This document shows, piece after piece, positions 1,295 to 59,318 of a DNA stretch of 64,000 nucleotides. Position 1 is the stretch's first letter. Each line of letters begins with the position of its first letter. The notes beneath the pieces were generated by a model that was not told where the DNA came from, made no database searches, and saw nothing but the letters and a program-made list of their open reading frames with translations. Origin of the DNA: a virus (Duplodnaviria; Caudoviricetes); the IMG/VR virus record IMGVR_UViG_3300028805_003982, one strand, 5' to 3'. A program made the position numbers and the translations under genes.

Positions 1295-1323
1295 GCTCTA
1301 ATAAGTATCCTTGGTGGTATACT
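1295..1323 (+). promoter_or_regulatory. Element-specific promoter (GTTCTA class)
   Basis: GCTCTA-17 bp-TATACT, G at -14; embedded in hairpin 1300-1352 that covers the GAGGTG RBS. Confidence 0.6.
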
Positions 1324-1352
1324 ATGAGTAATACTACTATGAGGTGCTATTT

Positions 1353-2225
1353 ATGGATGTAAAGAAATCTGAACGACATGACGAACACGCGCTGGTCTCG
1401 CCTTCGTCTCTTGCAAGAACAGCGGCTTGCCCCGCTTCGTTGATGATAAACAAGAACGCCGGAAGCAATGAAACTGCTTATACGCTGGAGGGTACAAGGG
1501 CACACATGGTTGCCGAGTATTTCGCCAGAGAAGCGTTGGGGCTTCCTGCCATCATGAAGTTTGAGGAAATCCCCGACAAGACAAAGGAAATGGTCAGATA
1601 CGGCATGGATTATGCCAAGTTCGCATATATGATCAAAGCTACCATGGAAGCGACATCTTCTTTGCCGGTAGCAGCTTATTGTGAGCGTAAGGTCAGCTGC
1701 GAACCGGTTATCCCCGAATGTTGGGGTACGGCAGACCTTATGTTCGTAGGTTCAGACCGCATCAGTGTTGCCGATTATAAGTTCGGTGCCAATAAAGTAG
1801 AAGTTCTCGGTAATTTCCAGCTTAAAGCGTATGCTTTGGGCGCTTATCTTTCTTTAACTGAGAAGGAGAGGGCAGGGGTTACCTATGTTGATACGTATAT
1901 CTTCCAGCCCAGAGCCAACTTCTTGAAGGACGGCAAGCCTGAAAAGGGGTATTTCGGAGTGACATCTTATTCAGTAAAGGAACTGTTTAACTGGGCTAAG
2001 GTCATTACTCCTACAGTCCTTAAAGCAATCGACGGTGTTGATGAAAGGCTCGGCGGCGATCATTGTATGTTCTGCGCAGCTAAGGGTTCTTGTGAGATGG
2101 CATTAAACTATAAGAAGGATTTTAAGGCGTCCCTTGCTGCCGAAGAAGAGGCACAGGATGTGTCATTGGCAGACGCATACCAGCAGGGCGGGGACGACCT
2201 GGATACGCCCACTTATTCTTTGTAA
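1353..2225 (+). CDS. DUF2800-family Cas4/RecB-like PD-(D/E)xK exonuclease (phage-type)
   Basis: HALVSPSS..R..ACP, EGTRAH, WGTADL...VADYKFG, QLKAYALG and CMFC...C Fe-S-type cysteines; acidic tail ending TYSL. Confidence 0.85.
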   Translation: MDVKKSERHDEHALVSPSSLARTAACPASLMINKNAGSNETAYTLEGTRAHMVAEYFAREALGLPAIMKFEEIPDKTKEMVRYGMDYAKFAYMIKATMEATSSLPVAAYCERKVSCEPVIPECWGTADLMFVGSDRISVADYKFGANKVEVLGNFQLKAYALGAYLSLTEKERAGVTYVDTYIFQPRANFLKDGKPEKGYFGVTSYSVKELFNWAKVITPTVLKAIDGVDERLGGDHCMFCAAKGSCEMALNYKKDFKASLAAEEEAQDVSLADAYQQGGDDLDTPTYSL

Positions 2226-2511
2226 CATTGTTACTTTTCAATGACTGTTGTTGTGTTCTTATAAAATGTTGATTTTCCGTAGTTTTTAGAAACCAACATT
2301 CACGTTCGTTTTATAAAGTATTGCATTATTAATACTTTACAAGACAGCGGTAAATAAATGTTTACCGGGTTTTTCGATAAACCAACAAAAGATTTTTAAC
2401 AAAATGTCATACAATTTCCTGATTTAGAAGTTATAATAACTCGTAGGAATACCCACAATATACCCACTCTCAGCAGGCGTATTGTGAGATAGAACCAAGG
2501 AGAGCAGTAAT

Positions 2512-4749
2512 ATGTTATTTATTGATTTTGAGACCCGTTCGGCAACGCCCATCACTTCCGGTGTCTATAGATATGTTGAAGATCCGTATTTCCGCATTCA
2601 GCTTTTTTCGTTTGCGTATGACGATGATGAGATAACGACCTTAGATCTGATGAATCCGTTAGTCGTCATTCCGGAGCAGGTTAAGAAAGACATGCTGGAT
2701 AAGACCTGTACCAAAGTTGCTCATAACTCCCAGTTTGAACGTATATGTTATTCCAGGTTCTGCGGTATGCCTACGGGGCAGTATATAGAGCCCGAAGGCT
2801 GGATATGCACTATGACATTAGGTCTTTTCAGAGGCTTTCCTGCAAAGCTCGAAGCGTTGGGCAACGCTCTTGGCATACCGGAAGACGCCAAGAAGATGAA
2901 GGAAGGTAAGAGGCTTATTGCCAAGTATGCCGTACCTCAGAAGACTAAGACCGGTCAGATCTATTTCAACGAGCCCGAGCCGGATCTGTTCGGCGTTGAC
3001 ACTGATTGGGACACTTATAAGAAATACAATAATACCGACGTTGCCGCTGAGAGAGCGATCTACAAGGCTCTTGTAAGACGTGGTGGCGGTTACGGCATGA
3101 TGGGAGCAAACGGCGTTTGGTCACCCACGCTTTGGGAAGAATTCTGGATCTCCGAAAGGGTCAATGACAGGGGAGTCAGGCTTGACAGAAAGTTTGTCAA
3201 CGGTGCGGTGGATCTTTCCAATGTCTTTTCCGAGAAGCAGGCAAAGGAGTTTAAGGCTACTTGTGATAAGATCGCCAAACTTCGCGGAGTGTCTGAGATA
3301 GAAAATGTTAAATCGATCCAGCAGCTTCAGGCAGTCTCCGGTTTTACTTCCGTTAAGAAAGAGGCATTAACAGATTATCTTTCGCATCATAAGGAACCCA
3401 AGACCGAGATGGAAAAGCTGCTCTGCGATTTCTGCCGTTACCGTTTGAGCGACGGCAAGACATCCGTTAAGAAGTATGAGAAGATGCAGGAGTGTATCAA
3501 TTCGGACGGCAGGGTAAGAGGGCTCTTCCGCTTTGGCGGTGCAGGGCAGACCCTTCGTTATGCGGGAAGGCTCGTTCAGCTTCAGAACCTTTCCAAGAAC
3601 CATTTCGGTACCATCGAAAAGGACGGCGTTCTGGTATCACCTGAAGTGCAGATCCTGAAAGCCCGTATCTCAAAGCTTGATCAGACGGTCTTTGACGAGT
3701 CCGAGGATTTTCTTGATATCCTGTCTCAGCTTGTAAGACCGTCACTTATCCCGGCTAAAGATCACATCTTTGCCGTTGCCGATTTCTCTGCTATCGAGGC
3801 CCGTGTCCTTTCGTGGCTTGCAGGAGAGCAGTGGCGTATAGACGCGTTCAGGAACGGTGAAGACATCTATTGTGCAACTGCAAGTAAGATGTTCGGCGTT
3901 CCCGTTGTTAAGCACGGTGAGAACGGAGAGCTCAGGGCGAAGGGCAAGGTCGCTGAGCTGGCGTGCGGTTACGGCGGCGGAGTGGGTGCTCTGCAGGCGT
4001 TCGGAGCCGATAAGATGGGCATGAACGAAGAACAGATGAAGGAGATAGTCACTAACTGGCGTAACAGTTCCCCCAGGATCACGGGTCTGTGGTGGGATCT
4101 TGAAAGGGCTGTCGTAGACTGTCTCCTGACAGGTGAGATGCAGCAGCTTGCCAAATATGTGGGGCTCAGGGTCTATGCGCTTACAAATGAGTTGGGTAAC
4201 ATGGATCTTATAATAGAGCTTCCCAACGGCAGAAGCCTGTTCTATAACGATGCGGAAATAAGAGATGCGAAAGATGACCCCATTAACCTCAGCGGACGCG
4301 GCATGGATCAGAGATCTCTGTCAATACAGCGCAGGAAGGTCGAACAGATCTCTTTTATGAGAACCGAAAAGAACAATCTTTTGAGGACTCCCACTTATTC
4401 CGGTAAACTCACCGAGAATGTTATACAGGCTCTTGCAAGAGACCTTTTGCAGGAAGCGCTGAAGAATCTTCAGAACGAAGGTTACGGCGTTGTTGCGCAT
4501 ATCCACGATGAGTGCATCGTTGAAGTTCCCAAGATAAAGCCGGACGGCACTTTCAAGACTCCTGAAGAACTTACGGCAGAACTCGATAAGATAAGTGACA
4601 TCATGGCAAGGGGCTGCAGTTGGAGCAAAGGGCTTCCTCTACGTGCCGACGGCTATCTTTGTAATTACTACATGAAGGACAGCGAGGGCGCTATTGACCC
4701 CAAATACACAATGAATGATGACTGGGATATAGATCCCGACGATCTTTGA
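2512..4749 (+). CDS. Phage-type family A DNA polymerase with 3'-5' exonuclease domain
   Basis: Exo I IDFETRS, AHNSQFER; motif A ADFSAIEARVL; motif B RAKGKVAELACGYG; motif C HIHDE; AAGGAG RBS. Confidence 0.93.
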   Translation: MLFIDFETRSATPITSGVYRYVEDPYFRIQLFSFAYDDDEITTLDLMNPLVVIPEQVKKDMLDKTCTKVAHNSQFERICYSRFCGMPTGQYIEPEGWICTMTLGLFRGFPAKLEALGNALGIPEDAKKMKEGKRLIAKYAVPQKTKTGQIYFNEPEPDLFGVDTDWDTYKKYNNTDVAAERAIYKALVRRGGGYGMMGANGVWSPTLWEEFWISERVNDRGVRLDRKFVNGAVDLSNVFSEKQAKEFKATCDKIAKLRGVSEIENVKSIQQLQAVSGFTSVKKEALTDYLSHHKEPKTEMEKLLCDFCRYRLSDGKTSVKKYEKMQECINSDGRVRGLFRFGGAGQTLRYAGRLVQLQNLSKNHFGTIEKDGVLVSPEVQILKARISKLDQTVFDESEDFLDILSQLVRPSLIPAKDHIFAVADFSAIEARVLSWLAGEQWRIDAFRNGEDIYCATASKMFGVPVVKHGENGELRAKGKVAELACGYGGGVGALQAFGADKMGMNEEQMKEIVTNWRNSSPRITGLWWDLERAVVDCLLTGEMQQLAKYVGLRVYALTNELGNMDLIIELPNGRSLFYNDAEIRDAKDDPINLSGRGMDQRSLSIQRRKVEQISFMRTEKNNLLRTPTYSGKLTENVIQALARDLLQEALKNLQNEGYGVVAHIHDECIVEVPKIKPDGTFKTPEELTAELDKISDIMARGCSWSKGLPLRADGYLCNYYMKDSEGAIDPKYTMNDDWDIDPDDL

Positions 4750-4840
4750 CCTCTTATAATCTTGCAAGAGCTGACACCTTGCATGTCCGGGAGGTTTAAG
4801 GGTTACTATCTGTAAACGGTACAGAAAGGAGTAAACTTAC

Positions 4841-6664
4841 ATGGCACAGAAAGATATGAAGGATGACGTTGACGTCAAGACCGGTGATGCCGAGAATAAG
4901 GGACCGGCTCCCGTAAAACCGAAGGTTAAGGACAAGTCTGCAAGCTTTACTCCCGAGTACGAGAATGAGCTCCGTAACATTGCTCAGAATAACGGCGTTG
5001 AGGGGCTTTTTAACGAGCTTTATGATGTTAAGGAAGTCATTATCAAGTATGATATTACACATTACCATATAGAAAAGAACGATGTGTATTTCGGTGACGA
5101 AAAGCTACTTATGCAAAAGGACCTTAAGGGGCGTCCCAACAGGTATCTTTATGCTTCGAGCGAGCATGATCCGATGGAAGGCAAGACAGTTACGCCTTTT
5201 ATGCTCCTGTCATATATCAAGTGTGCCAATGTTATAGGCCAGGCGACCAAGCAGTCGAGAAAAAAGGCTCTTGCCTTGGCAAAGGAAGACAAGCTGGTTG
5301 AAAAGTATCTTGGTGCAGAAAGCTGGATGTCCGACCTTGCCAAAGACGGCAAGGACAGGATACAGTCTAATGCGTTTAATGTCATGACTGTCTTTAAGTA
5401 TGATCCTTATTTCAAGGAACTCCGTTATAACGCATGGACACATCAGTATATCTGGAAAGGCAGGCCTCTTAAGGATTCGGACATAGCAGAGTTCGTTATC
5501 TACATGGGTCAGAACTACGATATGTTCAGCCTCAAGCAGAGCGTGGTATATGAATCGGTCAACTATGTTGAGAACTTCAGATCCTACGACCCTCTTCTTG
5601 AATACCTCGAAGGCTGCTACAGGGATTACGGAGCTACGGGCACTTATGAGATGGATCATCTGTTTCAGGAATTTCTCGGCTGCGAGGATTCGCCTTACAC
5701 CGTAGAAGTCAGCCGTTTGATGCTCTGCGGTGCGATAGGCCGTGCGTATAACCCCGGATGCAAGTTTGATACCATGTTCCTTATCCAGGGCGCAAGACAA
5801 GGTCAGGGCAAGTCAACCCTTATCAAGAAGCTTGGTGCGGGCTTCGGCCGTGAGGATATCAGCATCAAGGACTTTGAGAGCAAGACGATAGCAGAGAAGA
5901 TGAGGGGCGGTGCATGGCTTTGCGAGATCCCTGAGATGGACGGTCTTTCAGGACTTAACGAGAATACTTTGAAGGCTATGCTTTCCAAGAGCGAGGACTA
6001 TTTCAGGCCCGCTTACGCACGCAACATGGTGCTCATACCCAGAAGGACAGTGTTTGTCGGAACGGTCAACGATACTGATGACCTCTTTACAGACGTCAAA
6101 AACAGGCGTTTTGTTGTCATTCAGTGTGATGAGGAAAGGCAGACCAAGTATTCCTTTGACGATAAGGACATGAGTACGGAGTATGTCCGCAAGCTCTGGG
6201 GGCAGGCTATGGCATTGTACCGCAGCGGTGTTTATAACAAGAACGGTCTGGTATTATCGGACAGTGCGGCAGACGTTGCAGGCGACATCTGTGAATCTCT
6301 TGTAAAGCATGATCTTGCATTATCTCAGCTCGTCGATTTCCTCAGAATGCCTAGAGCCAACGGGTGGGATGAACTGCAGCCCTATGAGAAGGCTAAACTG
6401 TTCAGAGGGTATATCAATAATACCAATGAAGTTCCCGGGGAATTTGTATCTGAGATCTCGCTTCCCGAGATCATAGTAGAGATGCTGGGCAAAGAGATAT
6501 CCGCCGGTGTCGGCGATGACCGTATGGTCATACAGATCAAGAAGGAGCTTACCCGTCTGGGGTATCATAAGGGGCATGTCAAGGTCATAAAGGGCTACGG
6601 TAAGTCCGTGCAGATGTTTGTCCGCATTCCTCCCAAAGAGCATAAAAAGGCGTCAAAGTCCTAA
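4841..6664 (+). CDS. VapE-family (virulence-associated E) P-loop helicase of phage primase-helicase type
   Basis: PGCKFD, Walker A QGQGKST, WLCEIPEM, FRPAYAR, VFVGTVN, NRRF motifs. Confidence 0.88.
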   Translation: MAQKDMKDDVDVKTGDAENKGPAPVKPKVKDKSASFTPEYENELRNIAQNNGVEGLFNELYDVKEVIIKYDITHYHIEKNDVYFGDEKLLMQKDLKGRPNRYLYASSEHDPMEGKTVTPFMLLSYIKCANVIGQATKQSRKKALALAKEDKLVEKYLGAESWMSDLAKDGKDRIQSNAFNVMTVFKYDPYFKELRYNAWTHQYIWKGRPLKDSDIAEFVIYMGQNYDMFSLKQSVVYESVNYVENFRSYDPLLEYLEGCYRDYGATGTYEMDHLFQEFLGCEDSPYTVEVSRLMLCGAIGRAYNPGCKFDTMFLIQGARQGQGKSTLIKKLGAGFGREDISIKDFESKTIAEKMRGGAWLCEIPEMDGLSGLNENTLKAMLSKSEDYFRPAYARNMVLIPRRTVFVGTVNDTDDLFTDVKNRRFVVIQCDEERQTKYSFDDKDMSTEYVRKLWGQAMALYRSGVYNKNGLVLSDSAADVAGDICESLVKHDLALSQLVDFLRMPRANGWDELQPYEKAKLFRGYINNTNEVPGEFVSEISLPEIIVEMLGKEISAGVGDDRMVIQIKKELTRLGYHKGHVKVIKGYGKSVQMFVRIPPKEHKKASKS

Positions 6665-6830
6665 TATTTGGACATTTGGCGATAAAAACAGAAATTTGAA
6701 TGTTATACTAAAAGTAGGCAAGGCATGATACCTAAAGAGAAATCTCAGGGTATTACCAAAAACAAAGCAAGTGGTATAATATGCAAGTAATGCGTAGCAT
6801 TTGCTTATGACTAACAGGAGGTATAACACC

Positions 6831-7439
6831 ATGGCAAGAGCAAGTTCAAAGAGCAAAGCATCCGAAGGGTCGGCAGAAAGCGTGAAGGCGGTTACGCCGG
6901 CTAAAAAGAAGCCCGGCAGGATCAGGGATGTCGACAAACTGACGGAAGAAGAGATCAGGATCAAAAAGGAAAAGAACTCGGAGAGGATCAGTAAGTTCCA
7001 GAAAGAATCTTATAAGATGTCGCTGGTAAAACTCAGCCGCAACGACGACGCGGAACTTATAAAATTTCTTGATAATGAAGGTAATTTCTCAGGCGGCTGT
7101 AAGCAGATGCTGAGGTACGCGATAGCAAAAAGAAGGGAAGATATATTAGAGGCTTGCCCGGATCTTTCTCCTAAAGCGGATGCTATAAGATCGGACGTTA
7201 TATTTAAGGCTGAACTCTTAAGTGAATTGAGATTCTGGGCTTTAGTCGACCTGCTTCCGAAGCTTGGTACGGATAAATGGTGGACAGACCGCAAGAAGGT
7301 ATTTACATTTGACGAGACCGCAGACGAAAACGTACGTGTTAACGCTTTGTTTGACGAAGTTAAAAAAGACGGCGTAAAAGTGGTCGGCAAGCGCAGAGTT
7401 TATAAATATGTTTATGTGGAAGATGTAGAGGAGATCTGA
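6831..7439 (+). CDS. Hypothetical protein with probable ribbon-helix-helix DNA-binding segment
   Basis: AGGAGG RBS; segment SLVKLSRNDDAELIKFLDNEGNFSGGCKQMLRYAI resembles small phage RHH proteins. Confidence 0.55.
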   Translation: MARASSKSKASEGSAESVKAVTPAKKKPGRIRDVDKLTEEEIRIKKEKNSERISKFQKESYKMSLVKLSRNDDAELIKFLDNEGNFSGGCKQMLRYAIAKRREDILEACPDLSPKADAIRSDVIFKAELLSELRFWALVDLLPKLGTDKWWTDRKKVFTFDETADENVRVNALFDEVKKDGVKVVGKRRVYKYVYVEDVEEI

Positions 7440-8281: not shown

Positions 8282-8310
8282 AGTCTAAAACTCCTTTTGG
8301 CGGTTATTCT
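8282..8310 (+). promoter_or_regulatory. Element-specific promoter (GTTCTA class)
   Basis: AGTCTAAA; 17 bp to TATTCT; inside hairpin 8286-8337 covering the AGGAG RBS. Confidence 0.6.
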
Positions 8311-8339: not shown

Positions 8340-9383
8340 ATGAATACCAAGAATAGCCGTACAACCGGCGGTAACTGGCAGGAAGTAGGGATCGACATAA
8401 ACGGCATCGTCTGGGAAAACAAGGATATTGCGGATGCGGATATCGAACTGATAAAAAACTGTCTCGTATGTACCGGGTATTGTCCTTTGATAGACGGGTC
8501 TAATCCCGAACAGCCCGAGTTCCCGTTAGCTTATGCGGTCATTAAGGTTTCCGATCTTTCCGACAGTCTGCGTTCATATCTGGAGGACGTTTATAACCCT
8601 GTCCGTGACGTGTTCATATTGCAGTGCGATGCGCAGTTTGGCTGGACGGCTGTTGTCGGCAGCAGCGAGTATCTTAATAAATACATGGAAAACCCTGCGG
8701 GCATCAGTCCCTGTAAGACCGGTGCGTTAGTTTCATATATTGTAGCAAATGATGTGAGATTTAATAAAGAACTGACTAATTACGTAAACTGCGTGAATGA
8801 TGTCCTTTATAAGAACAAATTATATGAGTCATATAAGTTTATCTGCGTTGATCACGACCGTGATCTCATGGATAAGAACACCTTGTTCAGGATAAGCACA
8901 CCTTATCTGTATCGTATGGGTGATAAGTATCTGCCGGTTATTGCCGACGTGCGTTTCTTAAACGATTACTATATGAAGAATGAGTGCCATGAGCAGTACA
9001 AGAATTGTGGTTATCACATGAATAAGACAGCCCGTACCGAGGTTCTTCATGTGGAAAACCCCGACGGCTCTCTTACAAAGATAGATAAGCCGAACATAAA
9101 CGGTTTTGTCTTAAAAGATGATCCTTTTAATGACGTTTCCGGCAATGATGAAAAAGCTAAAAACAAGATCATTCACGATATCTTGGCAAAAGGCGGTGCA
9201 TCCTATTATTTGCAGGGCTGGGGGTTCAGGGTAGCAGAAAACGCGGAAAACCTCGTCACCTTTTCGGCAGAGGATTTCGGTGCAGGGTGCTTGCCTCTTA
9301 AGCATTTCTTGGACCCGAGGTGCGAATCCAAAGGCGATATTACAAGGTTCGATCACGAAGATAACGACATGCCGTCACTCTGA
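8340..9383 (+). CDS. Hypothetical protein (C-terminal ...DMPSL)
   Basis: 347-aa ORF with RBS, own promoter and terminator. Confidence 0.8.
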   Translation: MNTKNSRTTGGNWQEVGIDINGIVWENKDIADADIELIKNCLVCTGYCPLIDGSNPEQPEFPLAYAVIKVSDLSDSLRSYLEDVYNPVRDVFILQCDAQFGWTAVVGSSEYLNKYMENPAGISPCKTGALVSYIVANDVRFNKELTNYVNCVNDVLYKNKLYESYKFICVDHDRDLMDKNTLFRISTPYLYRMGDKYLPVIADVRFLNDYYMKNECHEQYKNCGYHMNKTARTEVLHVENPDGSLTKIDKPNINGFVLKDDPFNDVSGNDEKAKNKIIHDILAKGGASYYLQGWGFRVAENAENLVTFSAEDFGAGCLPLKHFLDPRCESKGDITRFDHEDNDMPSL

Positions 9384-9398
9384 CGGCATATTTTTTTT
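9369..9398 (+). terminator. Rho-independent terminator overlapping the last codons of the upstream gene
   Basis: ATGCCGTCA-CTC-TGACGGCAT followed by ATTTTTTTT. Confidence 0.85.
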
Positions 9399-9449: not shown

Positions 9450-9478
9450 GGTCTAAACACGTATCCGTTTGGTATAAT
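9450..9478 (+). promoter_or_regulatory. Element-specific promoter (GTTCTA class)
   Basis: GGTCTAAA; 17 bp to TATAAT with TGG extension. Confidence 0.65.
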
Positions 9479-14773: not shown

Positions 14774-14802
14774 GTTCTAAACAGACCCTTTGACGTTATA
14801 AC
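14774..14802 (+). promoter_or_regulatory. Element-specific promoter (GTTCTA class)
   Basis: GTTCTAAA; 17 bp to TATAAC. The -35 lies in hairpin AAGGGTTGTT/AACAGACCCTT, and the -10 region pairs with AGAGTTAT at the RBS. Confidence 0.6.
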
Positions 14803-14838
14803 TCTTGGTGAATGAATCATACAAACGGGAGAGTTATT

Positions 14839-15450
14839 ATGTCTGAGTTTACCGGTAATAAAGAACAGAATGTCAGATTGTTCTGGGTCGAAAGATCGTT
14901 CCCGGAAGGTTCTTGTGTCGGGTATCTTTATACCTTTGAACAGCTGATGACAACTCTCCGCTATTCGGAGGAAGAACTTAACAGGATGCTTAATAATCTC
15001 GGTGGTGTTCTGTCCGGTGTCTATTGGGGAAATAATAAGTACAGGGCTACAGAGCTCCACAATCTCCGTGAGGTGTACGACAAACTTACCTGGTCTGACT
15101 TTGTCCCGGATCAGGCTCTGACCAAACCCGTTAAAGTCCGTTTTGAATACCCCGAATATGTTGCATCTGAACACAGGGTCTCTTCGTGGATTCCGCATTT
15201 TATCGGTGCGACCGATTTTTGCATGATGAAGACACACGACGAAAATCCCACGGTCTATGAATACTGTAAAAAGCTCGGACTGGATTTTAACGAGACACGG
15301 TATGAGATGCCTAAAGACAAGATTATAGCAAATGTCGTAGCAGACCGCATCCGTGAGGGTGTGTTAAACGAGAATGAATATGCGAGGATCTGCAAAATAG
15401 TCAACAAGCTTGGCAGCGTAGATCCTGATGAGATAAGCATCGGCTTTTGA
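14839..15450 (+). CDS. Hypothetical protein (...ISIGF)
   Basis: GGGAG RBS before ATG 14839. Confidence 0.75.
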   Translation: MSEFTGNKEQNVRLFWVERSFPEGSCVGYLYTFEQLMTTLRYSEEELNRMLNNLGGVLSGVYWGNNKYRATELHNLREVYDKLTWSDFVPDQALTKPVKVRFEYPEYVASEHRVSSWIPHFIGATDFCMMKTHDENPTVYEYCKKLGLDFNETRYEMPKDKIIANVVADRIREGVLNENEYARICKIVNKLGSVDPDEISIGF

Positions 15451-15463
15451 GAGGAGCAGGCAA

Positions 15464-16084
15464 ATGAAACAAAGAGATACAATCGATATTACAAAACCTC
15501 TGGTCGTTAACCTTTTTGCAGGCCCCGGCGCCGGTAAGACCGTTATGGCAATGAGTCTGGTCGTAGAGCTTAAAAAGCAGGGGATTCATGCCGAGTATGT
15601 ATCGGAGGTCGCCAAAGGATGCGTTTACCGTCTTGATAATTACAGGCTCCCGAAAGAAGACGCCAAGGCCGCTGCTGATCTCATATCCGGCAGATTTTAC
15701 GATCAGGTCGAGCTTTTGCAGGAACAGAAGTATCAGCTTGATATCTTTGCAGGCAGCACTCAGGTCGACGTGGTCATCACTGACTCTCCGTTGGTCTTAA
15801 GTGCTGCGTATCTTAAGGATGATGACATGAGACCGGTGTTTGAGGACATGGTCAAGGACGAGTCTCTCAAATATCACAACATCAACTACTTTATACACAG
15901 GAACACGACCGAGTTTGAAGCGGAAGGCAGGATACACAATCTCGCGCAGAGCGTGGAGAAGGATAAAGAGGTAAGGGATCTTCTGAACCGCTTGGGCCAG
16001 AAATATCTTATTGTGAACAGAGAAAACATCGATGCCGTCGTGGACCGGATCGAAAGCGAGATCGGCAGAAGAAAGAGTCTTTGA
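15464..16084 (+). CDS. NadR/AAA_28-like P-loop NTPase (...RRKSL)
   Basis: VVNLFAGPGAGKT Walker A; VVITDSPL; FEAEGRIHN. Confidence 0.8.
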   Translation: MKQRDTIDITKPLVVNLFAGPGAGKTVMAMSLVVELKKQGIHAEYVSEVAKGCVYRLDNYRLPKEDAKAAADLISGRFYDQVELLQEQKYQLDIFAGSTQVDVVITDSPLVLSAAYLKDDDMRPVFEDMVKDESLKYHNINYFIHRNTTEFEAEGRIHNLAQSVEKDKEVRDLLNRLGQKYLIVNRENIDAVVDRIESEIGRRKSL

Positions 16085-16085
16085 C

Positions 16086-16526
16086 ATGGGTATTAACTGG
16101 CGGAACGTAATGAAGAACGAGATGCGGGGTATGGACCCTTATTCCGCTTATGAAAAAGAGAATAAAAGATACCGTCAGGAAGTTCGTGACAGGAACGAGA
16201 AACAGGCGGTACAGAGGCAGAGAAGAAACAGAAACAGTCATACATACGGAGGTGGCGGCATGATAATACCGAACGCAAGACAGGTAGCGATGTTAAAAGA
16301 AACGTACCCCGAAGGTACTAAGATAATCCTTAATCACATGGCAGACGATCCGCATCCCGTTGCGCCGGGCACAAAAGGTGTTGTCGAGAACGTGGATGAT
16401 GCGGGTACGATCCATTGTCTGTTCAACGACGGAAGGCGTCTGGGGATAATTCCCGAAAAAGATGACTTCCGCAAGCTGACAACAGAGGAGATAGCCAGTG
16501 ATGATTATTGGCAGCACCGTTTGTGA
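16086..16526 (+). CDS. DUF4314-domain protein (...WQHRL); possible internal start at 16260
   Basis: YPEGTKI.L..M.DDP.P...GTKG.V..VDDAGTIH..F..G..L...P..D.F motif. Confidence 0.8.
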   Translation: MGINWRNVMKNEMRGMDPYSAYEKENKRYRQEVRDRNEKQAVQRQRRNRNSHTYGGGGMIIPNARQVAMLKETYPEGTKIILNHMADDPHPVAPGTKGVVENVDDAGTIHCLFNDGRRLGIIPEKDDFRKLTTEEIASDDYWQHRL

Positions 16527-16535
16527 GGTGATGAC

Positions 16536-17489
16536 ATGAACAATCAGTTGCATTTAGACGGCATTATAACGGATCTTCGCTGGCTTGTTTTTGATATGGG
16601 TTCCAGTCTGTCAGACGACATATATGCGTTAAAAGAAGAGATCGGCGAGGATAAGATCAAAGAGCGTCTGGGGGATAAGTTCAGCATTGAAGACGATGAA
16701 TCGTTCGCTTTTTACAGGCAGCTTATTGCCATAGCCATAGACGAGCATAAATATGAATACATCAGATCGCTCTTGGATTATTGTTTTAAACCCGACCCGG
16801 AAGACCCCGATGTTTATGTTTTAGACAATACGTATTTTTATATGAACTTGTCGGCGGAATACCTTTCCAGAAATGAAGTGGCATTCGGCTGTTCCGTAGA
16901 AGAGGAATTAAGAGAACTGACAAAGAAATGCGAGAGCTTTTATCCTGAAATGGTTCCTCATATAAAAGAAACCTTGAATACTCTTTTAAGAGTTCCCAAA
17001 TCTCTTGGTTCGTTAGCCTATAACATAGCGCATGAATATTGGCGCATTATCGACAACCCTTATGCAGGCAGCGTGAAGTCCAATGATTTCTGGACTGTAG
17101 GGTGTCCTTCGATAAACCGCGCACATTCCTATATGTATGAGTGCCATCAGGACATCAAGCACGGGGAAGAAACTATCAGGCACTATAATACCGGAAACTA
17201 TACAGAGGCGGTGGAAAACTTTGTAACGGCAAGGTTCTCCGTAAAAGACAAAGAACTTTACGTTGATTTTGTAATAGGTGAAAAGTCCGCGTTAAAAGAC
17301 CCCGCAAGCGATCACTGCATAAGTCTTTCCACATCACCGGAATTCGCGGAAAAACCCGTGCCTGACAGCTCCTATAAGGTCAACAGGGACGGTGACTGTG
17401 TTAAAGAGTTTGCAGATCATTTTTCAGATGCGATCAAAAAGGCCGTAGAGGTGCTGCAGGCTGAAGAAGAAATACGCAACAGCTTATAA
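16536..17489 (+). CDS. Hypothetical protein (...IRNSL)
   Basis: GAGGTG RBS; 317 aa. Confidence 0.8.
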   Translation: MNNQLHLDGIITDLRWLVFDMGSSLSDDIYALKEEIGEDKIKERLGDKFSIEDDESFAFYRQLIAIAIDEHKYEYIRSLLDYCFKPDPEDPDVYVLDNTYFYMNLSAEYLSRNEVAFGCSVEEELRELTKKCESFYPEMVPHIKETLNTLLRVPKSLGSLAYNIAHEYWRIIDNPYAGSVKSNDFWTVGCPSINRAHSYMYECHQDIKHGEETIRHYNTGNYTEAVENFVTARFSVKDKELYVDFVIGEKSALKDPASDHCISLSTSPEFAEKPVPDSSYKVNRDGDCVKEFADHFSDAIKKAVEVLQAEEEIRNSL

Positions 17490-17503
17490 AGGAGGAAGAA
17501 GAT

Positions 17504-18259
17504 ATGCCTTACAAAGATGAAAAGAAACTGGTTGCCGCAGGCTCTGACATCTCAGTAGCTTTGTGGGACTGCGAGTTCTCACCTGATAAGAACTATAAGG
17601 ACACCGAGTATACCAAGATGATCATATCCATCACATCAGATTACAAGTGGGGTGACGGTTGGGCAGACTCAAAGACTTTGGAAAAGTACGGAGATCCGGC
17701 GATCCCTGCCAAAAGGTTCCGTGAAGAGGTAAATAAGATCTTCTCCGACAACGGATGGAAACTGGAGCTTACAAATGAATCGGGCACTTGTGACGTTGCT
17801 TATAAGGGGCTTTCTTCCATTTATATTCATCCCATGGAGCTGTCGGGCGAGGTTCATAAAAATGATGTAAACGAGCTTCTGGATATGTTTAAAATCGGGC
17901 ACGATCTTGCCGAAGGCCGTCCTTCGGAGCCCTATACCAAAAAGAGTTCGCCTTTTGAGACTTTTTCAGTTAACTATGTAAGGCTCCTTAACGACCTTAC
18001 GGGCTTTGGCGAGGCAGAGCTTGTTTCCTATCTTGAAGAACATAGCAGCGAGTTGGAAGCAGAAGTTGTCATCAGGAAAAATGCCGGCAGTATCTTCAGA
18101 CGCCCTGAACTTGCCGAAAAATACGGCATATTCAGCTTCGGGTTAAATCTGTCTCAGATGAATAAAAAGAACGGTATCCATTATGAACAAGGTATGCCTT
18201 TCTTTGATAACGCGGCCAGAGACGTGCTGCATAACATCTCAGACGAACCCGGTTTATAA
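17504..18259 (+). CDS. Hypothetical protein, YIHPME motif (...DEPGL)
   Basis: AAGGAGG RBS; shares motif with 10771-11553. Confidence 0.78.
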   Translation: MPYKDEKKLVAAGSDISVALWDCEFSPDKNYKDTEYTKMIISITSDYKWGDGWADSKTLEKYGDPAIPAKRFREEVNKIFSDNGWKLELTNESGTCDVAYKGLSSIYIHPMELSGEVHKNDVNELLDMFKIGHDLAEGRPSEPYTKKSSPFETFSVNYVRLLNDLTGFGEAELVSYLEEHSSELEAEVVIRKNAGSIFRRPELAEKYGIFSFGLNLSQMNKKNGIHYEQGMPFFDNAARDVLHNISDEPGL

Positions 18260-18281
18260 AACCGTCAAGGAGGGTATTAAT

Positions 18282-18650
18282 ATGAGTCAGTATAAAGCAA
18301 CTGAAATTGATTGGGATTTCGGCATTGATGACGAACTGGTTGATCTTCTTACAGATATCTGCAGTGAAGAGACTATGAGAACGACATTCGGCTGCGGCAG
18401 GGAGGATCTTACACCGGAAGAATACGCTCAGGTCAAGGATGTCGCAAGACATAAGCCCGGGGTCATATGCGACCTTTTAGGTCTGCCTTCGGAAGTAGAG
18501 CTTCCGGATAATATCGTTAATGTCGCGATTGCAAACGGAACGTGTGAAATGATCACCGATTGGCTGTCAGATGAATACGGTACCTGTATCAACGGGTATA
18601 CTCTGCCGGAAGAACTGGAAACCAAGATATATACCGGGAAGGATCTTTGA
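18282..18650 (+). CDS. Hypothetical acidic protein (...TGKDL)
   Basis: AAGGAGG RBS; I.WD...LP.EV.LP...ITDWLSDEYG.C..G pattern seen in MGE small proteins. Confidence 0.75.
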   Translation: MSQYKATEIDWDFGIDDELVDLLTDICSEETMRTTFGCGREDLTPEEYAQVKDVARHKPGVICDLLGLPSEVELPDNIVNVAIANGTCEMITDWLSDEYGTCINGYTLPEELETKIYTGKDL

Positions 18651-18654
18651 TCAT

Positions 18655-19233
18655 ATGAGTCTTTTAAGCCCTGAGTTTTTAAAGACATATCACCTTTCAG
18701 AAAATAAGCTGAAAGAAAATTATGGTCTGACCTCAGAAGAAGTAGAAGACATCAACAGTTCATGGTCAGGGTACGATCTGCTTCACGGGGAGTGTGTTTT
18801 TGTATCACGGGTGCTTTGGCTGACATTTTATCGTCTTGGTATTCCTGCATCTGACATGAGAACGGAACGGGCGCAGCTTACCGAAAGCGAAGGTTCCATC
18901 CTGCACGAGTATCTGGTCATCGACCGGGGCGGCGTGCCTTATTATGCCGATATCAGGGGCGTAACATCAGACTATAAAGAGTTTATGCAGGAGTTTGTTG
19001 ATTGGGAGAAGGATACCTTTGCAATGCAGATAGACATTAACGCTTTACGCCGTGTTACAGGCGTTCCTTATGGGGTGTTGGCCAAAGACGTTGTACGCGA
19101 TATGGAAGAGAGCACTGATACATATCCTGAGCTTAATCTGGCCGAAGACCTTGTTCATCAGCTGCTGGGGGATAAGCAGATTCTGGATATGTTTGTGAAA
19201 GACCTGAATAATTTAACCGAAAAGGAGCTCTAA
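18655..19233 (+). CDS. Hypothetical protein with possible Cys-His-Asp (papain/transglutaminase-like) triad (...TEKEL)
   Basis: HGEC...ILHEY...YADIRG in catalytic order. Confidence 0.55.
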   Translation: MSLLSPEFLKTYHLSENKLKENYGLTSEEVEDINSSWSGYDLLHGECVFVSRVLWLTFYRLGIPASDMRTERAQLTESEGSILHEYLVIDRGGVPYYADIRGVTSDYKEFMQEFVDWEKDTFAMQIDINALRRVTGVPYGVLAKDVVRDMEESTDTYPELNLAEDLVHQLLGDKQILDMFVKDLNNLTEKEL

Positions 19234-19235
19234 AA

Positions 19236-19778
19236 GTGAATAACATTGAGTTTTGCGATATTTTTGAACTGACGCCCGTTTTATCAAATTTGGATAACAG
19301 GGTATACATCATCGACGAAGGCAGCTTATTGCTTCCCGAAAATGACGGGGTGTGGGGAGTAATGACAAAAGAGGAGTTTTCAAAAGATTCCTTCGAGAAC
19401 GTGATCCCTGACCTGTTCATGGAAGGTCATTTAAACTACCTGTTAAACGAGTTTTTGCCTCTGGATCATGATGTTTCTCCAGATGTGATCATCAAGTTGA
19501 AATCAAGCCCGGTTTCACATTGGTCCAAGCTGCTTGATAAAACAGGATATCCTAAGGCGGCAGAGGTTTTGAAGGACTTTTGCGAATATATGAAGGGCAA
19601 TGTAACCCTTTTAACAGAGGACGTGATCGAAGGCCTGCGATCATCTCGTTTTGATGACCGCATAAGTTTATACATCGAGCGCGATCTGGCCGTACGTGAA
19701 CGCGATCATTATGAACATTATTTTAATGGCGGAGACGACATTCTCGATCTTGATGATCCTTTAACAGATCTGTCCTGA
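19236..19778 (+). CDS. Hypothetical protein (...LTDLS)
   Basis: AAGGAG RBS, GTG start. Confidence 0.7.
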   Translation: MNNIEFCDIFELTPVLSNLDNRVYIIDEGSLLLPENDGVWGVMTKEEFSKDSFENVIPDLFMEGHLNYLLNEFLPLDHDVSPDVIIKLKSSPVSHWSKLLDKTGYPKAAEVLKDFCEYMKGNVTLLTEDVIEGLRSSRFDDRISLYIERDLAVRERDHYEHYFNGGDDILDLDDPLTDLS

Positions 19779-19805: not shown

Positions 19806-19834
19806 GTTCTATGGGCAGAAAACGCCGTTATAGT
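19806..19834 (+). promoter_or_regulatory. Element-specific promoter (GTTCTA class)
   Basis: GTTCTA-17 bp-TATAGT, G at -14. Confidence 0.6.
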
Positions 19835-21839: not shown

Positions 21840-21868
21840 GGCCTAAAAGGTGTTTGTGAAGTCATAAT
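21840..21868 (+). promoter_or_regulatory. Element-specific promoter (GTTCTA class)
   Basis: GGCCTAAA; 17 bp to CATAAT, G at -14. Confidence 0.55.
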
Positions 21869-25445: not shown

Positions 25446-25480
25446 ATTATATTGATTAAACAATATAATAGCGTTATAAT
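25446..25480 (+). promoter_or_regulatory. Sigma-A-type promoter of the hsd operon with overlapping palindrome
   Basis: TTGATT-17 bp-TATAAT; perfect 9-bp inverted repeat ATTATATTG-N6-CAATATAAT over the -35. Confidence 0.7.
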
Positions 25481-35344: not shown

Positions 35345-36688
35345 ATGTCAGGTGTTGTGAAAGCAGTTTCTAAGGCGTTTGAAGTGGAGTCGGTAAGGAA
35401 AAGGCTCCTTTATACTTTAGGCATACTGGCTCTTTTTATGTTAGGCGGACTGATCCCGGTTCCCGGTCTGGACGGAGCTAAGTTTACGGAGCTTATAAGG
35501 CAGTGGGGGCAGCTCGGGTCCATTATGGACTTTGTATCAGGCGGAGGCCTTTATCACGCAACCATCTTTGCTCTCGGAGTTTCACCCTACATCAATGCGT
35601 CTATCATAATCCAGCTTCTTCAGGTAGTGATCCCCCGGTTGGAGGAGCTTTCTAAAGAAGGGGAAGCAGGAAGGAAGACGATCACACGCATTACACGAGT
35701 ATCTGCTGTATGTCTTGCTTTTATTCAGTCCTGTTTGTTCTGCTATTCAACCAGAAGTGCAATGGTGCCTTCGCTGCCCGCATGGCTTAACGCAATGCTC
35801 GTGATCGTTTCGTTTACGGCAGGTTCCTGCCTTGTTGTCTGGTTGGGTGAGAAGATCAATGACAAGGGTATCGGAAACGGCGTATCCCTTATCATCTTCG
35901 CAGGCATCGTAACAAGACTCCCTGATATGGCAAGGAGTTTATATGTAAAATGTACCGACATCGCAGTTTCTTTCGATAACCGGGTAATAGGAACGGTACT
36001 CGGCATTTTGACTTTTATCGGGATTTCCGTTATAAGTGTCGGCATCATCGTGTTTGTTTTGTATGTTCAGTGTGCGGAAAGGCGCATTCCCGTTCAGTAT
36101 TCCAAGAAGGTCGTTGGCAGATCTCAACGGGGCGGCAATAAGGACTACATTCCTTTGAAGGTCAACCAGTCAGGTGTTATGCCCGTAATCTTTGCGATGA
36201 GCATCCTGGCAGTACCTTCCATGATCGTAATGCTGTTTTTCAAGAACAGCGAAAGTCCCGTTGCCAAGTTCTTTGCCGGGGCATTTACAGGCAGCGTATG
36301 GTACTACATAGCGTATTTCCTGTTCATCATCGGATTTACATTCTTTTATTCGTCGATACAGTTTCACCCGACGGAGATCGCCAACAATCTCGCCAAGAAC
36401 GGCGGCAGTATAAGCGGAATAAGACCCGGAAAACCCACGGCTGATTTTATTAAGAGAACGGCTTTCCGTCTTAATTGGGCTGATGCAGCCTTTTTATCTT
36501 TAGTTTGCATTGTTCCGACGGTTATCGGCATCTTAACCGGTTTTCAGAACGTCTGGTTTGCGGGAACATCTGTCCTCATTCTTACGGGTGTGGCTAACGA
36601 TATGTCTATGCAGATAGACAGTGAAGTGGAAGTAAGAAGTCCCAAGGGCTTCTTGGACAATATATTGATCAAGACAGTAAAAGCATAA
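35345..36688 (+). CDS. secY: Preprotein translocase subunit SecY (stand-alone copy)
   Basis: IFALGVSPYINASIIIQLL, WLGEKI..KGIGNGVSLIIFAGI, RRIPVQY, IPLKVNQSGVMPVIFA, GIRPGKPT, GTSVLI; about 10 hydrophobic helices. Confidence 0.95.
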   Translation: MSGVVKAVSKAFEVESVRKRLLYTLGILALFMLGGLIPVPGLDGAKFTELIRQWGQLGSIMDFVSGGGLYHATIFALGVSPYINASIIIQLLQVVIPRLEELSKEGEAGRKTITRITRVSAVCLAFIQSCLFCYSTRSAMVPSLPAWLNAMLVIVSFTAGSCLVVWLGEKINDKGIGNGVSLIIFAGIVTRLPDMARSLYVKCTDIAVSFDNRVIGTVLGILTFIGISVISVGIIVFVLYVQCAERRIPVQYSKKVVGRSQRGGNKDYIPLKVNQSGVMPVIFAMSILAVPSMIVMLFFKNSESPVAKFFAGAFTGSVWYYIAYFLFIIGFTFFYSSIQFHPTEIANNLAKNGGSISGIRPGKPTADFIKRTAFRLNWADAAFLSLVCIVPTVIGILTGFQNVWFAGTSVLILTGVANDMSMQIDSEVEVRSPKGFLDNILIKTVKA

Positions 36689-40688: not shown

Positions 40689-40717
40689 ACCCTAAATCCG
40701 GGTTATAACGTCATACT
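40689..40717 (+). promoter_or_regulatory. Element-specific promoter (GTTCTA class)
   Basis: ACCCTAAA; 17 bp to CATACT, G at -14. Confidence 0.55.
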
Positions 40718-49799: not shown

Positions 49800-49828
49800 G
49801 TTCTAAAAAGGTTCTCCGATGTCATTCT
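49800..49828 (+). promoter_or_regulatory. Element-specific promoter (GTTCTA class) inside a terminator-like hairpin
   Basis: GTTCTAAA; 17 bp to CATTCT; hairpin AAAAAG..TCTCCGA..CATTCTT / AAGAATG..TCGGGGG CTTTTT. Confidence 0.6.
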
Positions 49829-55378: not shown

Positions 55379-55392
55379 AACGCGGGTTTTTT

Positions 55393-55421
55393 ATACTATT
55401 TTCAAGAATCGCTGTTATATA
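55393..55421 (+). promoter_or_regulatory. Element-specific promoter (GTTCTA class, weaker match)
   Basis: ATACTA-17 bp-TATATA with TG extension; ATACTATTTTC can pair with GAAAATAG-AG-GTAT over the RBS/start. Confidence 0.45.
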
Positions 55422-55487
55422 TTAAATATGGGTAGTTAATACGGAAGTATTACCGCCAGTATAATTTTGGCAAAGGAAAATAGAGGT

Positions 55488-56318: not shown

Positions 56319-56319
56319 T

Positions 56320-57126
56320 ATGGATTACGCAAAACTCAGGCTCAGCGCTTTGATAGATCTGTATAAGTCCGGGGATAAGGAAGCCGGGGCTGCTCTTGTT
56401 GAAAAGAAGATCCCTTCAATTACCAAACTTGCCGAATCTTTTGGCAATACCGGTGTTGTCACCGTTGATGATTTGGTGCAGGTAGGGTGCCTGGGTCTTC
56501 TCAAAGCTCTCGATAAGTTCGACAGATCCAAGGGTGAAAACTTTAACGCATACGCTTCTTTCTGGATCAGGCGTGAAATGCAGCACGAGCTTGAAGAGAA
56601 TGTAAGGACCATTCATGTTCCGCTTCAGGTTCAGAACGACATCCGTAAGATCGCCGAGTATCAGGAAGACTGTTATGGAGCGGCAGACGAAATCCCGACC
56701 GTCAGGAATATAGCAGAGCATTTCGATTTTACCGAGGATTACGTACGCGAGTGCATAAAGCTTATGGACCATACAGACCCGTTAAATAAACATAAGGAAG
56801 TATTGAGTGATCTGGGCAATGATTATATCGAAACGACCCCTGAGCAGCTCAGCAGACAAGGGGTTTTGAAAGATGAATTGATCAAAGCCATAAATAAAAC
56901 ACTGACACCCCGCGAGGCTTTTGTTATCCGTGAGCGTTATTTGAATGAAGATGAATCGCTCGTGCCGTTTGAAAAAATAGGCAAAAAGATCGGCCTCACA
57001 AGAGAACGCGTAAGACAGATAGAGGCCAGAGCTTTATATAAACTGCGCCACTATAACAAAAATCTGCAGTTTTTAGGGGATTCGAACGGCGTTCCGCTGG
57101 AACCCGATCACAGCAGAAAGCTCTAA
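56320..57126 (+). CDS. Sigma-70 family RNA polymerase sigma factor (...HSRKL)
   Basis: Region 2 DDLVQVG.LGLLKA.DKFD..KG.NF..YA.FWIR; region 4 LTPRE..VI..RY...IG..IGLTRERVRQIE.RAL.KLR. Confidence 0.9.
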   Translation: MDYAKLRLSALIDLYKSGDKEAGAALVEKKIPSITKLAESFGNTGVVTVDDLVQVGCLGLLKALDKFDRSKGENFNAYASFWIRREMQHELEENVRTIHVPLQVQNDIRKIAEYQEDCYGAADEIPTVRNIAEHFDFTEDYVRECIKLMDHTDPLNKHKEVLSDLGNDYIETTPEQLSRQGVLKDELIKAINKTLTPREAFVIRERYLNEDESLVPFEKIGKKIGLTRERVRQIEARALYKLRHYNKNLQFLGDSNGVPLEPDHSRKL

Positions 57127-57144
57127 AAAAGGAACGGAAAGGAA

Positions 57145-58164
57145 ATGAAATACATGACACCTGAAGAATACTGGCACATTCCTGCCGAAGAAATGGAAGT
57201 TTTATCTCCCGAAAGGGAACAGGACCTTGCAAGACGCGCCCGCAACGGGGACAGTACTGCAAGGGATGAGTTGGTCTCGCATAATTTAAGGCTTGTAATG
57301 TCGCTGGCCAATAAAGCCACGTCTTCCGGAGTAGGCGTCGACCAAGACGATAAGATCCAGGATGGCATGATGGGGCTGATGCGTGCGATAGAATCCTTTG
57401 ACCCGGATCTGGGTTTCAAATTTTCAACCTATGCCGTTTGGTGGATCAATCAGGCGATCGGAAGAGGCATCGCTAATGGAGACAGAGCCATAAGGATTCC
57501 CGTTCATGCATTGGATCGTCTTAACGCCATGAATAAGTTCCGCAAACAGTACCAGCAGGAAACCGGTGAGATCCCGGATAGGGAAACGATGCGAAACGCT
57601 TTTTCGGACCTGTCTGAAGATACTTTCAACCTGTTGTACAGCGGCTGCGTGGAACCGTTATCTCTTGATAATGTCGTAAGGCCCGACGAAGGAGAAGACG
57701 GAACCGTCGGCGATCTGATAGCTTTTTATAATGCGGATATAATGGCCGGGGATACCGTGTCTTCCGTAGAACGTGACAATGAATTGGAAGATCTGAAACG
57801 CAGAGTCCTCTTTGCTGTTGAAACATATCTCGATCCCAGAGAGCAGGAAGTCATCAAATGCAGATTCGGCCTTTGCGGCAGACCCATCTCGACTTTACAG
57901 GATGTCGGCGAAAAGATGGGCATCACACGGGAGCGAATCCGTCAGATAGAAAACAAGGCCCTGCGCAAACTCCGTATGAAAGGGTATAACATGCTTAACG
58001 GCCTCGATGGACACGAATTTCCGAAGATCAGGGTCGAGTCAAAACAGGACTTCAACAATATCCAGGTCGGTACCGGAGGGGGCTATGCAGGTATGTCAAA
58101 AGGGGAGAGGATCGAGCGCCCCTCTGACGGTCAACATAGTTTCGGTTCCGGTTCAAACTTGTGA
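57145..58164 (+). CDS. Sigma-70 family RNA polymerase sigma factor, RpoD/RpoS-like regions 1.2-4 (...SGSNL)
   Basis: LV.HNLRLV..LA, IQDG.MGLMRAIE.FDP.LGFKFSTYAVWWI.QAI, IRIPVH, TLQDVG..MGITRERIRQIE.KALRKLR. Confidence 0.93.
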   Translation: MKYMTPEEYWHIPAEEMEVLSPEREQDLARRARNGDSTARDELVSHNLRLVMSLANKATSSGVGVDQDDKIQDGMMGLMRAIESFDPDLGFKFSTYAVWWINQAIGRGIANGDRAIRIPVHALDRLNAMNKFRKQYQQETGEIPDRETMRNAFSDLSEDTFNLLYSGCVEPLSLDNVVRPDEGEDGTVGDLIAFYNADIMAGDTVSSVERDNELEDLKRRVLFAVETYLDPREQEVIKCRFGLCGRPISTLQDVGEKMGITRERIRQIENKALRKLRMKGYNMLNGLDGHEFPKIRVESKQDFNNIQVGTGGGYAGMSKGERIERPSDGQHSFGSGSNL

Positions 58165-58310: not shown

Positions 58311-58517
58311 ATGAAGAGCATGTTATGGGTAATCCTGGTATACGACAAATGTATGCGTATGGAAGAGACACAGAGGGAAAGAGAGTTCAAAGATACTCCC
58401 GATCTCAAGCGTTACTGCCAGATGGCCGCAGACCTGATCGATACTTCCGATTATCACAGGAATTTTTATTCCAGGTTATCCGAGGATCGCTTGGCTTCTG
58501 CCGGACGTGAGATGTGA
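58311..58517 (+). CDS. Small hypothetical protein (...AGREM)
   Basis: AAGGAGG RBS. Confidence 0.6.
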   Translation: MKSMLWVILVYDKCMRMEETQREREFKDTPDLKRYCQMAADLIDTSDYHRNFYSRLSEDRLASAGREM

Positions 58518-58578
58518 CATGGACAATTACCGGGGCAGATCCGGATTGTATATATTTGAATAAAGGAGACATAAATCT

Positions 58579-59019
58579 ATGAATTGTGTTATGCTTACCG
58601 GACGTCTTACTAAGGACGTCGAGCTGATCGTTAAGGATGAGAACCGTTGTCATACATCGTTTGACATCGCCGTTGACCGCAGGTTTCCGGACAAGGAAGG
58701 CAACAAGAAGTGTGACTTTATCAAGTGCATGGCCTTCGGCAGCAGAGCGAAGTTTCTCAGTAACTACTGCAAGCAGGGCGACCTTGTTCTTCTTTCCGGA
58801 ACTTTGGAGACTTCTACTTATGAGAAGGACGGAGTTAAGGTAAAGTCTTACTGCGTAGTCATCGACGGGATCGAACCCCTGTCTAAGAAGAAGAGTCCTT
58901 CTGTCAGCGGAGAGGATTCCGAAGATGCTGATGAGGCGACTTCTGATGCAGCTCCTGCTGAGGGTGATATCAATACCGATACCGGCAGCGATGATGACGG
59001 CACTCTTTTCCAGGTATGA
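58579..59019 (+). CDS. ssb: Single-stranded DNA-binding protein
   Basis: MN.V.LTGRLTKD.EL, F.IAVDR, DFI.C.AFG..A, G.L.T..YEKDG; acidic tail. Confidence 0.9.
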   Translation: MNCVMLTGRLTKDVELIVKDENRCHTSFDIAVDRRFPDKEGNKKCDFIKCMAFGSRAKFLSNYCKQGDLVLLSGTLETSTYEKDGVKVKSYCVVIDGIEPLSKKKSPSVSGEDSEDADEATSDAAPAEGDINTDTGSDDDGTLFQV

Positions 59020-59063
59020 CGTTTTCTGGTATAATCCAACGTATAATTTTTCGGGGGTGATCT

Positions 59064-59276
59064 ATGGATAAGCTGTTTATTCAGATCGGTTTATTTAAGA
59101 TCTGGTATGATCCTGACCTCATTAACATCTCCGACCCGGAGGTAGTCAAGGTTATTGAGGAGTTCAGAAGTAAGTATGCCTGTCTGACTGAGAAGGATCT
59201 GAGCGAGTATGAGGAGAGAGATCTCAGTATCTGGCCGTATCCTTATGACGGCGAGAAATACAGGATCGCTCCGTAA
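59064..59276 (+). CDS. Small hypothetical protein
   Basis: GGGGGTG RBS. Confidence 0.6.
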   Translation: MDKLFIQIGLFKIWYDPDLINISDPEVVKVIEEFRSKYACLTEKDLSEYEERDLSIWPYPYDGEKYRIAP

Positions 59277-59289
59277 GTGCTGATATAAA

Positions 59290-59318
59290 GTTCTAAACTC
59301 CCGTTTAGATGTGATACT
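59290..59318 (+). promoter_or_regulatory. Element-specific promoter (GTTCTA class) inside an RBS-masking hairpin
   Basis: GTTCTAAA; 17 bp to GATACT; CTCCCGTTT/AAACGGGAG and AAAGTTC/GAACTTT stems. Confidence 0.6.

Follow-up and report, generated by a model that had tools for sequence, protein, structure and literature searches.

Do the predicted operon starts of a large mobile element share a promoter type of their own and, if so, what would read it? The question is raised by a stretch of 64,000 nucleotides (nt), hereafter the window, of the IMG/VR virus record IMGVR_UViG_3300028805_003982 (Duplodnaviria; Caudoviricetes). A sequence-only reading of this DNA described ten operon starts of one geometry, in which a hexamer ending in CTA occupies the -35 position and is followed after exactly 17 bp by a -10 hexamer, and connected these operons with proteins that end in leucine (Leu-tailed proteins). 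The present analysis confirms that the ten predicted promoters are a real class in fixed register. They are listed here with their -35-position and -10 hexamers and, where given, a leave-one-out matrix score; a possible additional site closes the list.

1295-1323, + strand: CTA-box promoter GCTCTA/TATACT, before the DUF2800 nuclease gene; score 15.5; GGT exactly 33 nt before the -10
8282-8310, + strand: CTA-box promoter AGTCTA/TATTCT, before the orphan gene 8340-9383; score 12.7
9450-9478, + strand: CTA-box promoter GGTCTA/TATAAT, preceded by a strong terminator (9369-9389); GGTA box at 33 nt
14774-14802, + strand: CTA-box promoter GTTCTA/TATAAC, in a 43-nt gap, heading genes 14812-19778; score 16.1
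19806-19834, + strand: CTA-box promoter GTTCTA/TATAGT, a weak member with CTA and -10 present and no AA after the CTA; score 7.2
21840-21868, + strand: CTA-box promoter GGCCTA/CATAAT, before the DUF3846 gene
40689-40717, + strand: CTA-box promoter ACCCTA/CATACT, before the DUF5688 gene; GGTA box at 33 nt
49800-49828, + strand: CTA-box promoter GTTCTA/CATTCT, top score of 22.5 with a poor -10; eight genes behind it, 6 of 8 Leu-tailed
55393-55421, + strand: CTA-box promoter ATACTA/TATATA, the weakest member; score 3.7; a second -10 at 55460
59290-59318, + strand: CTA-box promoter GTTCTA/GATACT, heading a gene with a PemK-like fold lead; score 20.7
6658-6686, + strand: possible 11th site, weak; its CTA overlaps the VapE stop codon and its -10 is poor

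A CTA box in fixed register

All hexamers, the 17-bp spacer, the G at -14 and the A and T at positions 2 and 3 of the -10 were verified at the ten sites, as was the continuation of the box to CTAAA at seven of them, and each site lies in the gap immediately upstream of a ribosome-binding site and start codon. On the + strand of the window there are 16 matches to the invariant core (CTA, 15 nt, G, 2 nt, AT). Eleven of these fall within the non-coding 14%, where 2.5 +/- 1.5 are expected from Markov-1 sequences, and the - strand holds one match.

The sequence-only reading had itself feared a bias from selecting sites by eye, and the most skeptical explanation is that chance matches in front of genes were picked out by eye. 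Six invariant bases alone are indeed a weak criterion, with about 15 chance matches per strand, and leave-one-out scores, which are at least 12.7 at eight sites, are poor at 19806 and 55393. An objective test was made with 55 intergenic + strand -10 candidates, chosen by the G at -14, the A and T at positions 2 and 3 and a match of at least 4/6 to the consensus, with the upstream sequence ignored. Among all 3-mers at spacers of 12-23, the top entry was CTA at spacer 17 (n=10); CTA at any other spacer was found at most once, and a count of 10 was reached in none of 2000 shuffles of the upstream sequence. The candidates so recovered comprise nine of the ten sites together with 6658, the site at 49800 failing the 4/6 filter. 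In a blind dyad scan, the CTA/-10 dyad ranked 3rd of 32,168 (p=1.7e-6), the two AAA/TTT dyads above it being homopolymer artefacts. De novo expectation-maximization (EM) on 36 intergenic regions recovered the box plus the -10 as its second and third models. Enrichment against shuffled and host controls, which had been proposed as a check, holds for the window, in that the motif is recovered de novo, beats the shuffles and is not a host-genome pattern. Neither the objective scans nor the shuffles, the - strand or the host genomes (examined below) are compatible with chance, an explanation to which we attach a very small probability.

In the alignment of the ten sites the conserved upstream part is R-N-T-CTA-A-A, an asymmetric box of 8 bp at the -35 position, and the downstream half consists of the G at -14, usually a T at -13, and the -10 hexamer. 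The G(-14) and -10 half is also common to about 14 further promoter-like sites of the window that have no CTA, and the best de novo EM model merges the CTA and non-CTA promoters; therefore only the -35-position box is class-specific. Twelve copies of the flanked box (R-N-Y-CTAA) are found in the intergenic DNA of the + strand, and one on the - strand. Nine of the 12 intergenic copies lie exactly 17 bp from a -10, which is the behavior of a promoter element and not of a free operator. Against TTGACA the box matches 2/6 positions at 17 bp and 3/6 at 16 bp, and it is not a canonical -35. The -10 is of the sigma-A extended type: all ten sites have an A at position 2 and a G at -14, eight have a T at position 6 and five a T at -15. 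Thus the description of a non-canonical promoter class stands for the -35-position box and falls for the -10 and G(-14), which form a sigma-A-type extended -10 shared with the 14 or so other sites. A sigma-70-type scan of the window lists none of the ten sites, and its matches are not enriched over shuffles.

Other promoter types are found in the same DNA, including the ordinary promoter of the hsd operon, which proved to be as the sequence-only reading described it.

25452-25480, + strand: sigma-A-type promoter of the hsd operon (TTGATT-17-TATAAT), a contrast to the CTA class
60543-60581, + strand: AAAC-N3-GGTA promoter, 33 nt before the -10, no CTA box; twin at 62129-62167

In the second of these types, which comprises six promoters, a GGT (first G at 1285, 9440, 33713, 40679, 60543 and 62129) precedes the -10 by exactly 33 nt and is usually part of AAAC-N3-GGTA. 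On three of the six (1295, 9450 and 40689) this second box is combined with the CTA box, and the CTA class is not cleanly separate from the AAAC-N3-GGTA type. Near-identical -10 sequences with about 20 nt of leader recur in the pairs 2432-2459/9473-9500 and 161-185/25475-25499, the upstream halves of which differ; this suggests that promoter and leader modules may have been copied and recombined. At 2409, a non-CTA promoter, an inverted copy of the box adjoins the -10. At 59290 a perfect inverted repeat (59292-59309), with arms of 7 bp separated by 4 nt, has the CTA box as one arm and lies within the promoter spacer. A strong two-way terminator hairpin (9367-9391) is found just upstream of the 9450 promoter; most other CTA promoters have no upstream terminator, and read-through from the preceding operon is likely at these.

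Host genomes and Leu-tailed genes

The SecY protein encoded in the window is 70-77% identical to SecY of rumen Clostridia of the Saccharofermentans/Mageeibacillus type, and this family is likely to be the host lineage. A strict pattern, defined as one that 7/10 sites satisfy, was counted with the reversed pattern as its control. The 64-kb window has 7 matches to it, all on the + strand and none on the - strand. In 143 genomes of the likely host family (about 350 Mb) it has 520 matches, below the reversed-pattern control in nearly every genome. The same 143 genomes hold 1272 perfect copies of the canonical -35, 17-bp spacer and -10, against about 0.4 per genome for the control, and no such perfect copy is found in the window. 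At a matrix score of at least 13 there are 13 matches on the + strand of the window versus 13 in 1.33 Mb of host-lineage loci read on both strands (2.67 Mb-strands). EM on host upstream regions was dominated by orthologous leaders and was discarded. Judged by these pattern counts, the CTA class is element-specific and not a promoter type of the host chromosome; its absence from the promoter repertoire of the likely host fits a reader encoded by the element.

These counts also bear on an explanation that needs no dedicated factor, in which the ten sites would be extended -10 promoters read by the host sigma-A or by the second of two sigma factors encoded in the window, the box being a lineage-specific weak -35 or spacer feature that tunes promoter strength and is kept by selection on output. 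Consistent with this, the -10 half is a standard sigma-A-type extended -10 common to the non-CTA promoters, a G at -14 is present in about 40% of the first 31 host consensus promoters listed (counted by eye), and at a 16-bp spacer the box reaches the 3/6 match to the canonical hexamer given above. However, the invariant C, T and A sit at precisely the positions that mismatch that hexamer, the host-family genomes are heavy users of the canonical hexamer and yet carry the pattern below control, and the spacing is stricter than is usual for sigma-A. We consider this explanation unlikely.

Viral contigs queried with four window proteins gave no close relative, and the protein of 8340-9383 has no homologue besides itself. 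Relatives of the PolA protein are 25-41% identical and come from ordinary prophage replication modules, for example in a Monoglobus record; the motif is not in excess at these relatives. Homologues of the DUF5688 protein in the host family show at most 32% identity. Although the Monoglobus record NZ_OY725741.1 is classed as a plasmid of 286 kb, it contains genes of pyrimidine biosynthesis along with an ordinary prophage that has the same DUF2800-PolA-VapE module, and looks like chromosomal DNA.

The window itself is a nearly unidirectional (+ strand) gene block of 44% G+C, part of a contig of about 235 kb. It contains a phage-type replication module (DUF2800 nuclease, family A polymerase and VapE), a CCA-adding enzyme gene, two tandem RpoD-like sigma genes and genes for DUF4314, DUF3846, DUF5688, SSB and PcfJ, together with many small genes of no known family; DUF3846, DUF4314, DUF5688, SSB and PcfJ we take to be families of conjugative elements. 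A cargo island at about 24.5-40.7 kb holds a type I restriction system, a full SecY, an MFS transporter and a GGDEF-EAL protein. In this island, which has no CTA promoters and almost no Leu tails, the full-length SecY (35345-36688) adjoins the transporter and the GGDEF-EAL protein.

Leu is the C-terminal residue of 34/80 called open reading frames (ORFs) between 1344 and 62870. Thirty of these end in [G/S/D/N/E]-Leu, and the Leu codons are varied. The tails are concentrated in the core blocks, the cargo island having almost none, and at the loci of PolA relatives the Leu-ended share is at most 25%. When every + strand gene was assigned to its nearest upstream promoter, 34/56 genes behind CTA promoters were Leu-ended versus 5/31 behind others (Fisher p=9e-5). 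Every CTA unit has at least one Leu-tailed gene, and in the nine-gene block behind the 9450 promoter 8/9 are Leu-ended. The claim that the CTA operons hold most of the Leu-tailed genes is borne out (34/39).

Candidate readers of the box

The two sigma genes follow a guanylate-kinase-like gene behind the 55393 promoter.

56320-57126, + strand: sigma factor 1, RpoD-like; sigma-A 4.2 helix; regions 2.4 and 3.0 diverged
57145-58164, + strand: sigma factor 2, RpoD-like; sigma-A 4.2 helix; no region 1.1; 60-aa C-terminal extension

Because both are Leu-tailed and lie behind the weakest CTA promoter, sigma factors 1 and 2 resemble products of the class. Both align with primary sigma factors. Sigma 1 has a rewritten region 2.4, and other residues stand at its two region 3.0 positions that read the TG extension; sigma 2 retains most of regions 2.4 and 3.0. 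In both, the -35-reading helix of region 4.2 is unchanged, the alignments showing the sigma-A type, in agreement with the RpoD-like recognition helix that had been read from the sequence. Sigma factors with a sigma-A 4.2 helix should prefer the canonical -35 hexamer. From these alignments, the two window sigma factors seem unlikely readers of the box; this narrows the search for the reader, which may be located elsewhere on the element.

The reading that we favor, at roughly even probability, is that the CTA box is recognized by a positive specificity factor that the element encodes and that controls these operons together. At each promoter a sigma-A-type extended -10 (G at -14, often TG) would be combined with the 8-bp box, which would replace the -35 hexamer. 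The factor would be either a sigma factor reading the box with its region 4 or an activator substituting for the -35 contact, and a sigma-A-type region 2/3 would read the -10 alongside it. Such a factor would turn on at least 10 operons with most of the Leu-tailed genes. Its exact register and its place in the -35 slot suit a box that is touched by the polymerase holoenzyme, or by an activator in place of the -35 contact. Five members combine an imperfect -10 with the lack of both a -35 and a T at -15, and under the established rules for sigma-A such promoters should be weak unaided. That these five would be expected to be weak unaided favors a positive factor over a repressor and over the host sigma-A alone. 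The motif, its register, its placement at operon starts, its rarity in host-type genomes and its association with the tailed genes are seen directly in the DNA, whereas the binding of a dedicated factor, the positive action of that factor and what it would be are inferred.

Several points weigh against a positive factor of the element. Two of the ten sites are weak members. Genes of the same operon are not independent, and the untailed genes of the cargo island inflate the contrast in tails. Host identity is based on one cargo gene. Among viral contigs and relatives of PolA and DUF5688 no related element with the motif turned up. Searches of all frames of the window with profiles of sigma regions 2 and 4 gave no third sigma-like ORF, and Pfam/NCBIfam scans of window ORFs, which did not include every small one, gave no DNA-binding family. 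The regulon under an element sigma factor or activator that the sequence-only reading proposed thus retains its fixed-register class, its link to the tails and its non-host pattern, and it lacks a reader among the window proteins scanned. The gene 6801-7439 has a faint ribbon-helix-helix lead in a protein atlas, with a score of 0.77, a level at which chance matches are common.

This faint lead and the perfect inverted repeat formed by the box at 59290 are consistent with a different role for the box, as an operator to which a repressor of the element would bind. The operons would then be of the establishment type, silent in the resident cell and firing briefly after transfer, like those under Reg576 on p576. 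The unidirectional block with its several operons, its many small unknown genes and its families known from conjugative elements would suit such a programme, and establishment regulons with one shared regulatory sequence are documented on Gram-positive plasmids (PMC6294495, PMC8708921). However, the box is a lone asymmetric element of 8 bp, dual or palindromic sites are absent at 9/10 promoters, and a repressor does not need the exact register to the -10. Furthermore, unlike the near-consensus promoters of p576 (PMC6294495), half of those in this class look too weak to initiate transcription without help. A repressor is accordingly improbable in our estimation, and the positive factor remains the favored reading.

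A more ambitious form of the positive factor has a modest probability. It would be a private transcription class, in which a new -35 specificity (a region 4 variant, or an appropriation of sigma in a Firmicute) switches at least 10 operons and about 34 unrelated Leu-tailed products. If true, one regulon would be defined twice, via a promoter box and via a protein tag. The box is a simple handle by which to delimit the regulon, and it coincides with the independent and unexplained signature of C-terminal Leu tails; together, box and tails point to a coordinated programme.

Other candidates were rejected. A single-stranded-DNA promoter would not be accommodated by gaps of 43-90 nt, which are too short, and a hairpin or dimer site between the box and the -10 is contradicted by partial repeats at variable distances. 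The LexA, SinR and Spo0A boxes and the consensus sequences of sigma-B, -E and -K mismatch the core bases.

Behind the 59290 promoter, the locus 59354-60210 encodes a product of 164 aa with a weak PemK/MazF-like fold lead in the protein atlas, followed by ORFs of 53 and 54 aa, and may be a toxin-antitoxin-like module.

Comparison with known systems

Mobile genomes time their programmes through promoter classes that belong to one phage or plasmid alone, and few such classes are known from the giant, uncultured elements of Firmicutes in the gut and rumen. A search of the literature for the sequence of the box returned nothing relevant, and the comparison below is made with systems of similar design.

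In the middle promoters of phage T4, which are served by the MotA box and by the appropriation of sigma by AsiA, a short asymmetric box replaces the -35 upstream of a sigma-70-type -10 that is often extended, and the promoters form one temporal class. The present promoters are like them in having a box in the -35 slot, a fixed register and a sigma-70-type -10. They differ in the sequence and position of the box and in the host, which here is a Firmicute, and the window shows no sign of a remodelling of sigma. No protein of the MotA or AsiA family was found among the window proteins scanned against Pfam, a search that did not extend to the other ~170 kb of the contig.

SigN, encoded by plasmid pBS32 of B. 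subtilis, has a regulon that is essentially confined to the plasmid, with its own -35 and -10 consensus (PMC6751061). The likeness lies in a promoter class private to the element; the sites described here do not follow the SigN consensus (a TTTACG-type -35 and a GATATA-type -10), and the window has no sigma factor of this kind, both of its sigma factors being RpoD-like. The promoters of the group 5 sigma factors of clostridia (TcdR, BotR, TetR and UviA) have a GTTATA -10 with a conserved G and a T-rich, non-canonical -35, TTTACA (PMC4031146). An identical GTTATA-type -10 is present at three of our sites, whereas the TTTACA -35 is absent at all ten; a group 5 sigma gene was not found among the sigma-like ORFs of the window, which are the two RpoD-like genes.

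Promoters of SigD/FliA (sigma-28) have TAAA at -35, often preceded by C, and a -10 of GCCGATAW with a CGA core, 13-16 nt after the TAAA (PMC3865298). TAAA is found at -35, as CTAAA, in 7/10 sites here. However, a -10 with the CGA core is absent from the proper place in all ten, and the -10 lies about 3 bp closer.

The establishment regulons of the pLS20 family, with Reg576 operators on p576 and EGeRS1 on pLS20, place the same regulatory sequence before several operons (PMC6294495, PMC8708921). Several operons of small variable genes within one region and a shared upstream sequence are found in both cases. On the plasmids, however, the sigma-A promoters are near consensus and have dual heptamer operators next to the -35, or the shared sequence is a conserved region of 400-600 bp; the window has a single 8-bp box in the -35 slot. 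Paired operators and near-consensus promoters of the Reg576 type do not describe these sites, at which the box is single, a canonical -35 is missing and an inverted repeat is present at 59290 only. A promoter class private to a mobile element is of a kind already known.

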